Shown here: positions 32,488-36,417 of the stretch, piece after piece
Position numbering within the stretch: the first letter of the stretch is position 1
How the letters are laid out: every line of letters begins with the position of its first letter
Source of the DNA: Escherichia coli
Lineage (GTDB): Bacteria; Pseudomonadota; Gammaproteobacteria; Enterobacterales; Enterobacteriaceae
Assembly: GCF_003334255.1 (NCBI RefSeq)
Contig: NZ_QOWU01000009.1
DNA: 64,000 nucleotides
Direction: 5' to 3' (one strand)
Notes under the pieces: model-generated
Told to the model about the DNA's origin: nothing
The model's input: the letters and a program-made list of their open reading frames with translations, nothing else
The model's database searches: none
Program-made: the position numbers and the translations under genes

Positions 32488-33822
32488 TTAATGTGCGTTA
32501 GACGCGGTGTGGTTATCCATTGAGTGGCTCTGGCGCTCGTGCATTTTGCGAGCGTAGAACATCAGGATAATCAGGCTGACGATGAAGGTACCTGCCAGCT
32601 CGAAGGAGCTTGCGCCCATCAGCGCGATGAAGCAGAACACGCAACCCAGTACAGAGCAGATCAGGCTGACAAAGTTGCGGATGTTAACGCCTTCAAAACG
32701 AATCAGGTCAACGCAAGAGTAGAAATACGGCAGCATAGTCAGCAGTACTGCGATACCGGTCAGTTCACCGAACAGGTCAGATGCTTTACCACCGGCAGAG
32801 TTCATCAGAGTGATAAGGATCATCAGGGCAGTCATTTTCACTGCAGCCAGCAGCAGACCTTTTTTCGGAATACCGTTGCTGTCGACTTCACCATAAACTT
32901 TCGGGAAGTTACCGTCGTTAGCGGCACGTACACCTGCCTGGCCTACCAACATCATCCAGGAGCCCAGAGAAGTCAGGCACGCAAAGGCGGTGAATGCAGA
33001 AACCAGCGGCGCAGCCCAGTTACCGAGGATAGTTGAAGCACTGATTGCAAACGGAGCACCGGAAGCCGCCATTACAGAAGACGGATACATACCGGAAAGC
33101 ACCTGAGTCGCAGCGATGTAAACAATACCTGCTAAACCAGTACCCAGCATGGTTGCCAGCGGAACGGTACGTTTCGGGTTTTTAACCATACCAGTACTTA
33201 CAGCTGCGGATTCAACACCCACGAAGGCCCACAGGCAGAGCAGAATACTTTTAATGATCGCATGACCATCAGTGGTATCCGCAGTATTCCAGTTAGCTGC
33301 ATAAGTTGCTGCATCAAACCAATGCCAGCCAACAATAGCAGTCATCACCACAGGAATAAGAACCAGCACCAGACCAATAGTGGTTAAACGGCTTACCCAA
33401 GTACCGCCGAGCATATTTACAAAGGTAAATACCCAGACGATAGCAATACAGGCGATACCCGCCGGAACAGGATCATTTAATACTGGGAAGAAGGTGGAAA
33501 GATAAGATACAGCGGTAATACCAATCGCCAGGTTACCAATCCAGTTAGCATGGTAATAAAGAACACCTGTCTGAAAACCAAATGCAGGGGAAATTTCTCC
33601 GGCATAAGCAATTGGGCCACCTTGTTGCGGGTTTTTTGTTGCCAGTCGGGCATATACATACGCCAGCGACATTGCACCAATAATAGAGATAATCCAACCC
33701 CAGATAGCAATACCACCGATACTTGCTAGGTTCGCAGGTAATAATGCAATACCGCTCCCCATCATATTACCGGCAACAACACCGGTACAGGCAAATAGCC
33801 CGATCTTCTTGGCAGAACTCAT
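32488..33822 (-). CDS. cadB: Lysine:cadaverine antiporter CadB (444 aa)
   Basis: 444-aa APC transporter paralogous to AdiC. Confidence 0.95.
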   Translation of the reverse strand: MSSAKKIGLFACTGVVAGNMMGSGIALLPANLASIGGIAIWGWIISIIGAMSLAYVYARLATKNPQQGGPIAYAGEISPAFGFQTGVLYYHANWIGNLAIGITAVSYLSTFFPVLNDPVPAGIACIAIVWVFTFVNMLGGTWVSRLTTIGLVLVLIPVVMTAIVGWHWFDAATYAANWNTADTTDGHAIIKSILLCLWAFVGVESAAVSTGMVKNPKRTVPLATMLGTGLAGIVYIAATQVLSGMYPSSVMAASGAPFAISASTILGNWAAPLVSAFTAFACLTSLGSWMMLVGQAGVRAANDGNFPKVYGEVDSNGIPKKGLLLAAVKMTALMILITLMNSAGGKASDLFGELTGIAVLLTMLPYFYSCVDLIRFEGVNIRNFVSLICSVLGCVFCFIALMGASSFELAGTFIVSLIILMFYARKMHERQSHSMDNHTASNAH

Positions 33823-34027
33823 GCTCTTCTCCTAATTTCATTTTTGAATTTGGAGTCCGGGTCATGATGTATAACTATTTCCTGACCAGACCAAACTGGC
33901 GATAAGATTACTCACGAAAAAAGGATTAATCCTAAAGATTAGGTGAAATAACACAAAAGTTTCTGTAAGTGAGAACTTGAGGTTTTTTATTAACACATCA
34001 GGATCGCAAGTTGATATCATGAAAAGA

Positions 34028-34044
34028 TAAACATTTAATGTTTA
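34028..34044. promoter_or_regulatory. AT-rich perfect palindrome in the cadBA promoter region (candidate CadC or H-NS site)
   Basis: taaacatt-t-aatgttta, about 205 bp upstream of the cadB ATG; assignment to CadC is not verified. Confidence 0.3.
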
Positions 34045-34081
34045 CAATGGATTGCGTGACATTCTCTGGTTAAATTTATGT

Positions 34082-34112
34082 AATAAAAATTATGCGGCAA
34101 ATAAATTGCCGC
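34082..34112 (-). terminator. Intrinsic terminator of cadC
   Basis: Hairpin gcggcaa-ataaa-ttgccgc (34094-34112) followed on the minus strand by ataatttttatt. Confidence 0.65.
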
Positions 34113-34186
34113 AACATATTATACCAACAGGAACATACAAAAACTCAACAACAAATATTTCCGAGCATAAATCAACCCGGAGTTAC

Positions 34187-35725
34187 TTATTCTGAAGCAA
34201 GAAATTTGTCGAGATAAGGTACAACATAAGGAACAGAAGTCTGGAATATACCATTTTCAATCCAGTAAAGGGTGTTTGCCCCTGGGCGTAAATTAAAGGC
34301 GGTGAGATATGCATCAGCTGCTTCCCGGTTCATCCCCTTCATTTCATAAACCTTGCCAAGCAACACATAATTTAGCCAGGACATTTCAAGATCAATGCCA
34401 GTATTTATCGCCTGGTAAGACTCATCTGTTTTACCTTTTACCAGAGCACTGACCGCTTTTATTTGATATATAATGGACAGGTTGTTCAATTCCGGCAGTG
34501 TAACAATGTTATCTATTTCTGTGTTCAGTGCTGCTAATTGTTTTTCATCTAAAGGATGTTGAGAATGGCGCACGATATCAACTAATGCTTTTTCTGCTCT
34601 CGCGTAGGTAAATTCTGGGGATGATTGAACAATCTCACCTAATAATTCACTGGCACGGTTCAATGATTTATCATCGCCATGCAGTAAATAATCATGTGCC
34701 TGATAAAAATTAGTTAATAACGCACCACGATGCGGCAAAATTTTCTGGAGCGTCTCCTGCATTCGTTGTGGCCACGGTTGGTTTAACGCTTTTGATAAAC
34801 TCTCCAGTAAATCATTTTGAATCGCCAGCTGATTACCGTTAGTGATGACATAACGTTTATCCAGCATGGTTGAACCATCTGCATTGTCTACCAATTTTAT
34901 CGACATAAAGCATTGTTGAGCACGGTATTGGCGCTGATTAACAAACGCAATAGATAATGTTTTACCGGAACTGCTCGGTTCATCAATGTTGTAGTTGATT
35001 TTGTCATGCACCATAAAGGTGGAGAAGGTGTTAAGTGATGTCGCCACCAAATCACCCACGCCTATCGCGTAAGAGAGCTGATACGGGGAACTCCAGCTGT
35101 TACAACTTTTATTTACCATATTAATGTCAATATCGCGTGGATTGAGCAAAATACGCGATTTGCTCATAGGAAGACGTGTATCAAGACTTGAAAACGCTAC
35201 CAGTGCTACACAGATACCTAACGACAACAGGAAAAAAAACCATACCCAAAAGGTAGTGAATCGTTTGCTTTTAACTGGGGATTGTTCAGGTGGCGTTGCG
35301 GTGTTTTGAATGTTAAGACTGTGGGAGGGAGAATCTGTGGCAGGAACCGCCTCTGGTATAGGGGGAGGCGAAGATAGCATTATTTCCTCTCCCTCTTCTT
35401 CGCTGTACCAGATAACCGGCACCATTAATTTATAGCCGCGCTTTGGTACAGTAGCGATATAGACAGGACTATCTTCATCATTATCTTTTAATGACTTACG
35501 TAGTTCTGAGATACTCTGCGTCACAACGTGATTGGTGACAATACTTCTCTTCCAGACATTATCGATAAGTTCATCCCTGCTAAGTACTTCGCCACTGTGT
35601 TGAGCAAAGAAAACCAGAAGATCGATTAATCTCGGCTCAAGGGTAAGTTGACGCCCATTGCGGCTAATTTGGTTTATGGACGGAGTAACAAGCCATTCGC
35701 CAACGCGAACTACAGGTTGTTGCAT
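34187..35725 (-). CDS. cadC: Membrane-integrated pH-sensing activator CadC (512 aa)
   Basis: N-terminal winged-helix OmpR-like DNA-binding domain, single TM (FWVWFFFLLSLGICVALVAF), periplasmic sensor domain. Confidence 0.95.
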   Translation of the reverse strand: MQQPVVRVGEWLVTPSINQISRNGRQLTLEPRLIDLLVFFAQHSGEVLSRDELIDNVWKRSIVTNHVVTQSISELRKSLKDNDEDSPVYIATVPKRGYKLMVPVIWYSEEEGEEIMLSSPPPIPEAVPATDSPSHSLNIQNTATPPEQSPVKSKRFTTFWVWFFFLLSLGICVALVAFSSLDTRLPMSKSRILLNPRDIDINMVNKSCNSWSSPYQLSYAIGVGDLVATSLNTFSTFMVHDKINYNIDEPSSSGKTLSIAFVNQRQYRAQQCFMSIKLVDNADGSTMLDKRYVITNGNQLAIQNDLLESLSKALNQPWPQRMQETLQKILPHRGALLTNFYQAHDYLLHGDDKSLNRASELLGEIVQSSPEFTYARAEKALVDIVRHSQHPLDEKQLAALNTEIDNIVTLPELNNLSIIYQIKAVSALVKGKTDESYQAINTGIDLEMSWLNYVLLGKVYEMKGMNREAADAYLTAFNLRPGANTLYWIENGIFQTSVPYVVPYLDKFLASE

Positions 35726-36011: not shown

Positions 36012-36335
36012 ATGAGCAAGCGAACTGATACATTTCTCTTTGTTCTCATTCAGAAAATCTCATCAGTCGCCGTTCAGACCGGTGTTGTGCTTTATGGATG
36101 CGTTACGCTCCTGATGACGTCATTTGACGTTCAACAGCATCACGGGGCCGCACGACATTTCACGTCAGTTAGTGCTATAGCTCAGGAACAAATTTTCCCG
36201 AATTGGGATATGCCCGCAAATTGCTGGTGATGTGGGGAGAATCTGGTTGAGTTCGGTAGAATTGATTTGGAGGCAGAACGCTTAAATCGTGGCGTCCTGA
36301 AACGAAAAACGGACCTCCGTGGAGGTCCGTTTATA
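36012..36335 (+). pseudogene. Degenerate C-terminal fragment of a P4-family tyrosine integrase, next to pheU
   Basis: 72-aa ORF plus out-of-frame continuation; HGAARHFTSVSAIAQE...FP..D resembles the integrase HGLRS.AST...E.GFP.D box and CGENLVEFGRIDLEAERL resembles the region just after the catalytic Tyr, with the Tyr not conserved; alignment made from memory. Confidence 0.45.
36301..36329 (-). terminator. Intrinsic terminator of pheU
   Basis: Hairpin cggacctcc-gt-ggaggtccg (36310-36329) followed on the minus strand by tttttcgtt, 13 nt after the tRNA 3-prime end. Confidence 0.8.
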
Positions 36336-36341
36336 TGAATT

Positions 36342-36417
36342 TGGTGCCCGGACTCGGAATCGAACCAAGGACACGGGGATTTTCAATCCCCTGCTCTACC
36401 GACTGAGCTATCCGGGC
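36342..36417 (-). tRNA. pheU: tRNA-Phe (anticodon GAA)
   Basis: Reverse complement reads GCCCGGATAGCTCAGTCGGTAGAGCAGGGGATTGAAAATCCCCGTGTCCTTGGTTCGATTCCGAGTCCGGGCACCA: 76 nt, cloverleaf, encoded CCA. Confidence 0.97.

Follow-up and report, generated by a model that had tools for sequence, protein, structure and literature searches.

In Escherichia coli, low pH together with lysine leads CadC to activate cadBA via two promoter sites, Cad1 and Cad2 (PMC5430869). The Cad1 oligonucleotides are printed in the Methods ('DNAs') of Schlundt et al. 2017 (Sci Rep 7:1051, PMC5430869), and include the 41-mer, 5'-TTGTAAACATTAAATGTTTATCTTTTCATGATATCAACTTG-3'; Cad1A, GTAAACATTAAATG; Cad1B, GTTTATCTTTTCA; Cad1AB, a 26-mer across both; and Cad1C, TGATATCAACTTG. 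A 17-mer represents the quasi-palindromic core, the target that Kuper and Jung 2005 had earlier proposed for CadC (cited in PMC5430869). The isolated CadC domain binds this 17-mer 1:1 with a Kd of 23–67 µM (NMR, SPR, EMSA, SAXS), the stoichiometry resting on SAXS and NMR relaxation (PMC5430869). The 26-mer Cad1AB and the 41-mer take two CadC domains (SLS, SAXS) at higher affinity, 380 nM by SPR, and Cad1AB is the minimal fragment on which two CadC DNA-binding domains are accommodated head-to-head (PMC5430869). Swapping out the AT patches of Cad1A and Cad1B reduces affinity, and docking with HADDOCK places H66, Q70 and K95 in contact with bases, giving a loose 5'-TTAxxxxT-3' consensus that occurs twice, head-to-head (PMC5430869). 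The copy of the PDB searched contained no CadC–DNA complex, and the atomic picture is this docking model.

ToxR, PhoB and other OmpR-family response-regulator structures are the PDB matches of the CadC domain, and have the same DNA-binding fold. PhoB and OmpR typically bind head-to-tail direct repeats, ~10–11 bp apart. Unlike these operators, Cad1 has been modelled head-to-head, and CadC is tethered to the membrane. What CadC has in common with ToxR, PhoB and OmpR at their operators is AT-rich recognition with few base-specific contacts (PMC5430869). A PhoB-like head-to-tail reading of the Cad1 blocks TGTAAA and TGTTTA, which lie 13 bp apart, was considered and rejected, being off the helical repeat and without experimental support.

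The locus described here lies within a stretch of 64,000 nucleotides (the window). On its plus strand, positions 34028–34044 read TAAACATTTAATGTTTA, a perfect, AT-rich palindrome of 8 + 1 + 8, in which two fully complementary 8-bp arms, TAAACATT and AATGTTTA, surround a single unpaired T. The symmetry ends with the arms, the flanking A (34027) and C (34045) adding no further pairing. The palindrome itself is assigned to neither strand; its coding-strand reading (34044..34028), 5'-TAAACATTAAATGTTTA-3', is letter for letter the Cad1 17-mer of PMC5430869. Although the core is described there as 'quasi-palindromic', its arms are in fact perfect, and the central base alone is unpaired. The 41-mer probe likewise has one exact match in the window (34047..34007, minus strand), which corresponds to the full upstream CadC-binding site of the published NMR, SPR, SAXS and ITC work. 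From this match and the published oligonucleotides (PMC5430869), Cad1AB can be placed at 34020..34045 on the minus strand, with Cad1A at 34045..34032 and Cad1B at 34032..34020.

All 41 bp, including the 17-bp core, are identical to Cad1 of the E. coli K-12 cadBA promoter (Kuper and Jung 2005; PMC5430869), as are the gene context and the CadC DNA-binding domain; there is no difference between the two, and the element is the same. Of the two sites for CadC in the E. coli cadBA promoter, Cad1 is the distal one, and on this identity the palindrome is almost certainly its core. This regulatory element has been documented before, and no new one is proposed. The link to CadC is drawn from exact identity with the published probes, and direct binding, stoichiometry and affinities, which come from the literature on identical DNA and not from measurements on this copy, would apply to it by that identity. 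The first-pass annotation, made from the letters alone, had described a perfect palindrome ~205 bp upstream of cadB, had suggested CadC binding, and could not say whether this was the documented Cad1 site. Sequence, coordinates and complementarity of the arms are as it had read them, the distance to the cadB ATG (33822, minus strand) is exactly 205 nt (34027..33823), and comparison with the published CadC site gives a positive answer, the documented 41-mer (34007..34047) covering 34028–34044.

The spacer that holds the palindrome, between cadC and cadB of an E. coli chromosome, is 364 bp long and 33% G+C. The cadC, cadB and cadA ORFs are all encoded on the minus strand and meet curated NCBIfam cut-offs. 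An intact cadC (34187..35725; NF007540, 752 bits; 512 aa) encodes the membrane-integrated ToxR-like activator; cadB (32488..33822; NF007754, 920 bits), the first gene of the regulated operon, encodes the cadaverine/lysine antiporter; and cadA (30261..32408; NF011929, 1628 bits), the second gene, encodes the inducible lysine decarboxylase and has a terminator hairpin at ~30226–30247. A K-12-type genome with 100% identity to the window in this region carries the same annotation, which together with the NCBIfam scores upholds the earlier gene calls, with cadB downstream and cadC upstream. Residues 2–107 of the CadC encoded in the window are 100% identical to the crystallised DNA-binding domain (PDB 5JU7).

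cadC ends 143 bp upstream of the palindrome, and a terminator-like hairpin of cadC lies between the two, 48 bp upstream of the palindrome (34093..34113, minus strand; TGCGGCAATTTATTTGCCGCA followed by a T-run). The hairpin is largely conserved across ten Escherichia sequences, with three positions substituted in E. albertii and a divergent 'E. coli' (SCPM strain), and its location upstream of the palindrome leaves the latter outside the cadC transcript proper. It is the distal of two terminator-like hairpins that follow the cadC stop on the minus strand, the other being at 34160–34181. The K-12 derivative E. coli ER1709 has a Cad1 and promoter identical to those of the window, but its cadC carries the annotation of a pseudogene with a frameshift. 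A few K-12-like genomes (e.g. E. coli isolateA, NZ_CP135502.1) have an IS1A ~72 bp into cadB, which disrupts the first gene of the operon; an IS1 insertion in Cad1 was considered for these and rejected, as the IS1 sits inside the 5' end of cadB and Cad1 is intact.

As a symmetric sequence, the palindrome is not beyond chance in the window, and only mildly unusual in its spacer. Twelve perfect palindromes with 8-bp arms and loops of 0–3 nt occur in the 64 kb, compared with 4.7 ± 2.4 in dinucleotide-preserving shuffles; for those with a 1-nt loop, one is observed and 1.1 are expected. When the 364-bp spacer alone was shuffled, such a palindrome arose in 209 of 5000 shuffles (~4%). As the palindrome is unremarkable by symmetry statistics, its weight comes from identity with the published site and from conservation.

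The position of Cad1 relative to the transcription start can be approached through the published numbering, in which the 17-mer spans −144 to −128 and the 41-mer −153 to −113 (PMC5430869). These ranges are inconsistent by 6 bp, as the 17-mer begins 3 nt into the 41-mer (its 4th base). The implied +1 is therefore 33900 by the 17-mer numbering or 33894 by that of the 41-mer, with a 5' UTR of 78 or 72 nt, respectively. It is plausible that either position fits the conserved TAATCT at 33910..33905, which is taken as the candidate −10 of a putative core-promoter end at 33894..33910 (minus strand), placed from the numbering in PMC5430869 and the conservation profile. A scan for consensus sigma-70 promoters found no match on the minus (cad) strand, as expected of an activator-dependent promoter. 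The footprints of Cad1 and Cad2 we take to extend from −144 to −112 and from −89 to −59, respectively. One antisense sigma-70 match overlaps the palindrome on the plus strand (ATGAAA-18-TACAAT, 34019–34048, 9/12) and was dismissed as chance, 1 match being observed and 1.8 expected in shuffles.

Of the seven E. coli spacers aligned, six have G at position 33903 (minus strand, TAATCTTATCGCC), just downstream of TAATCT, where the window has the K-12-type T; the T is common to Escherichia sp. MOD1, the divergent 'E. coli' SCPM strain and E. albertii. This polymorphism speaks against taking TCTTAT for the −10 hexamer. A second block with very strong conservation, (T)TA(T/A)CTTTAGGA, is found at 33930–33941 (minus strand CTAATCTTTAGGA), ~110–120 nt upstream of the cadB ATG and near the expected −35. 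The block resembles the Cad1B core TTATCTTT, and persists in Edwardsiella, Hafnia and Izhakiella as well, genera in which the distal anchor is either missing or displaced.

Conservation outside Escherichia was followed by scanning one genome per species with CadB, which yielded 80 loci; 36 non-Escherichia Enterobacterales with cadC directly upstream of cadB were kept. In all 36 species the block TTTATCTTTT occurs 200–205 nt from the cadB ATG, and the conserved element as a whole can be written TGTAA-N8-(A)TGTTTATCTTTT, fixed at this same distance. Klebsiella, Raoultella, Salmonella, Serratia, Yersinia ruckeri and others share with the window this element, the upstream cadC and the invariant CadC residues described below; the 8 + 1 + 8 palindrome is absent from their orthologous cadBA promoters, among the 36 species aligned. 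Read along the coding strand, the TG before the left arm has an identity to the window of 0.9 per position, and the left arm TAAACATT itself scores 0.7, 0.8, 0.7, 0.4, 0.0, 0.6, 0.1 and 0.3. The centre scores 0.0, the right arm AATGTTTA 0.3, 0.7, 0.8, 0.5, 0.9, 0.9, 0.9 and 0.9, and the TCTTTT that follows 0.8–0.9 per position. The inner left arm and centre are thus not conserved outside Escherichia, which indicates that at least part of the palindrome is not under deep constraint. Across the 36 species, 2–6 of the 8 symmetric pairs survive in the aligned 17-mer (median 4), and these are in essence those of the outer TAA/TTA.

A changed recognition surface does not explain this loss of symmetry, as the CadC residues E30, R32, R50, W58, R60, V63, H66, T69, Q70, K95 and R96 are invariant in 33 orthologues. 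Of these, H66, Q70 and K95 are base-contacting according to PMC5430869, and the remainder were chosen in view of mutational data. From these alignments, the perfect palindrome appears to be a feature of the Escherichia lineage, its perfection specific to E. coli. A shorter, shifted palindrome, with the same right arm and a left arm 4 bp closer, is seen ~203–216 nt upstream of cadB in several genera, as TAAAC-N3-GTTTA in Raoultella and Buttiauxella, and as TAAACA-a-TGTTTA in Salmonella diarizonae and Superficieibacter electus.

The proposed CadC consensus can be located within this conserved region. 5'-TTAxxxxT-3' has two minus-strand matches, 34038..34031 and 34030..34023, and one on the plus strand, 34035..34042. 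The second of these, TTATCTTT (34023..34030, minus strand), lies in Cad1B and overlaps the last three bases of the palindrome; it is the deepest-conserved block of the site, with 0.8–0.9 identity per position in the 36 non-Escherichia species. The plus-strand match, TTAATGTT (34035..34042), falls inside the palindrome on the Cad1A side, at positions that are poorly conserved outside Escherichia. We infer from pattern matching that TTAATGTT may be the second half-site, and the mapping of both motif copies is qualified in the same way. Cad1B shares no more than the final five bases with the right arm and runs 8 bp past it, and because the second CadC domain sits on Cad1B, the palindrome would be part of the site rather than a two-arm operator. 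The functional unit is thereby suggested to be Cad1A plus Cad1B; the conservation pattern agrees with the published two-domain result and supports it independently.

Of 5426 complete E. coli genomes, 5205 have a single copy of the 41-mer region, and the other 221 gave no match to the Cad1 41-mer. Three of the matches were on plasmids rather than chromosomes. Both arms are perfect in at least 4809 of the 5205 genomes (at least 92%). The exact 41-mer of the window, which is of the K-12 type with a coding-strand A at the centre (34036), is found in 1165 of the 5205 (22%), and the same 41-mer with G at the dyad centre is the majority allele (3644; 70%). The dyad centre is therefore a common E. coli polymorphism, and the K-12 allele used in the published biophysics is the minority form.

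Ten cadC–cadB spacers were aligned to follow the site across Escherichia. Strain D10 and an Escherichia sp. share the 17-mer TAAATATTGAATGTTTA, with 7/8 symmetric pairs; JSWP021 (TAAAAATT...) also has 7/8, and the divergent 'E. coli' SCPM strain (TAAATGTT...) and E. albertii (TAATTATT...) have 6/8. The left arm thus occurs as the variants TAAATATT, TAAAAATT, TAAATGTT and TAATTATT, while the right arm varies only in APEC O78 and the TTTATCTTTTCATGATATC just downstream of it is invariant in 10/10 sequences. Relative to the window, the Cad1 alleles of other Escherichia lineages therefore keep the position, right arm and Cad1B, but differ in the centre and left arm. The 30 bp upstream of Cad1 are highly polymorphic in the ten spacers. 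One APEC O78 genome (O78:H4 E12049) reads TAAATATT-G-AATATTTA, a symmetric double change with 8/8 pairs, which restores perfection compared with the 7/8 variant TAAATATT-G-AATGTTTA of strain D10; only two genomes fall in its identity band, and the double change may be due to chance.

These distributions bear on whether the dyad symmetry itself is recognised, as it would be in a classical operator with each subunit of a CadC dimer on one 8-bp arm. In its favour are the perfect arms, which at least 4809 of the 5205 genomes retain, the TAAATATT-G-AATATTTA double change of APEC O78, which is symmetric, and the first proposal of a target for CadC, which was the quasi-palindrome (Kuper and Jung 2005, cited in PMC5430869). 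Against this, a single CadC domain binds the 17-mer, and 2:1 binding requires the 26-mer, which reaches 8 bp past the right arm (PMC5430869); the arm centres are 9 bp apart, which would seem to leave little room for two winged-helix domains. Other Escherichia lineages are already at 6–7 of 8 pairs, and outside the genus the symmetry falls to the median of 4 despite the invariant CadC residues, so that symmetry is not what has been conserved. We regard such an operator as improbable. The converse, that CadC reads no dyad symmetry, that the conserved element is the asymmetric TGTAA-N8-TGTTTATCTTTT, and that in E. coli alone a degenerate distal half-site has recently been sharpened into the palindrome, is put forward tentatively, as a possibility that could well prove wrong.

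Other proteins, or none, might be responsible for the palindrome. The first-pass annotation had named H-NS nucleation beside CadC binding; probe identity carries the CadC half of that suggestion, and for the H-NS half support exists for the whole promoter fragment, with no motif-like match on the palindrome. As an explanation, H-NS would make the AT-rich palindrome primarily a high-affinity site that seeds the silencing of PcadBA, which is compatible with CadC binding but, as the main role of these bases, rather unlikely. H-NS prefers the cadBA promoter fragment in competitive gel shifts (PMC2984483), and reviews state that CadC replaces H-NS at the cadBA promoter, but the former is binding at fragment level, with none mapped to these bases in the literature examined. 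The region is 68–72% A+T, but the whole 364-bp spacer is equally AT-rich, and nothing singles out the 17-mer. The high-affinity H-NS motif is TCGATAAATT; a search allowing up to two mismatches to it found none on 34028–34044, the nearest being at 34067–34082 and 34203–34212, which is a weak negative. Binding of the palindrome by OmpR, another winged-helix regulator, which represses cadBA under acid stress, is very improbable. The TGTAA...TGTTTA blocks bear what we take to be a loose resemblance to OmpR-type half-sites, which counts for OmpR. It also shifts the cadC/BA promoter fragment and binds the fragment in AFM (PMC5686162), but this too is fragment-level binding with no site mapped here, and identical DNA has been directly shown to bind CadC (PMC5430869). 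Perfect self-complementarity might instead point to a nucleic-acid hairpin, either an RNA terminator or attenuator or a DNA cruciform, and not to a protein site at all. The stem has a single G-C pair and a predicted stability of ~−4 kcal/mol, and the terminator pattern is not matched. The palindrome also lies downstream of the cadC terminator-like hairpin (34113..34093) and ~130–150 bp upstream of the cadBA start, so that it is not expected in either transcript, and an Rfam search with it returned no family at E ≤ 1. On the weak fold, pattern, position and lack of an Rfam match, the RNA or hairpin reading was rejected, its chance of being correct being negligible.

With Cad1 as the preferred reading, the following course of events is suggested. 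CadC, a ToxR-like one-component receptor that is anchored in the membrane and has a winged-helix domain of the OmpR/PhoB type, becomes active as a dimer at low external pH in the presence of lysine. Two of its DNA-binding domains would then occupy Cad1 head-to-head, one on Cad1A (left arm, centre and the start of the right arm), and the other on Cad1B (the last bases of the right arm and the 8 bp that follow). Each domain would read a few thymines and adenines of the loose 5'-TTAxxxxT-3', where the AT-rich grooves are narrow. Binding at Cad1 and at the proximal site Cad2 would jointly counteract H-NS silencing and recruit RNA polymerase, so that cadBA is transcribed, and the resulting lysine decarboxylase and lysine/cadaverine antiporter would raise the pH. 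The bases of the palindrome that CadC touches in vivo, and the displacement of H-NS at this exact spot, are points that we infer.

The element being a known one, what is added is only mildly new, namely that the perfection of the palindrome is lineage-specific, that its centre is polymorphic, and that the proximal half and Cad1B are deeply conserved. Were the palindrome indeed a sharpened distal half-site without a role for symmetry, natural variants could tune the affinity of CadC, and so shift the pH and lysine threshold for cadBA induction between E. coli lineages. The variants in question are the two central bases, A and G; the three bases seen at position 5 of the left arm, C, T and A; and the symmetric double change of one APEC lineage. 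The conservation data predict that GTTTATCTTTT, and probably the distal TGTAA, are needed for induction, and that the centre A-to-G change, and a change of the inner left arm from ACATT to the TTCAA of the Klebsiella type, would move the induction threshold only a little. They also point to the bases worth mutating in the engineering of PcadBA for biosensors or PACE circuits.

Elsewhere in the window, a tRNA-Phe (GAA) gene is located upstream of cadC (36342–36417, minus strand), and just downstream of the tRNA gene is a G+C-rich palindrome, GGACCTCCGTGGAGGTCC (36311–36328), which is probably its terminator. In the K-12 relative, an integrase fragment is annotated between tRNA-Phe and cadC. Two further G+C-rich perfect palindromes, CTGGCAGCATGCTGCCAG (19436–19453, 18 bp, no spacer) and CAGCATGATCATGCTG (19735–19750, 16 bp), lie less than 300 bp apart and share the motif CAGCATG.
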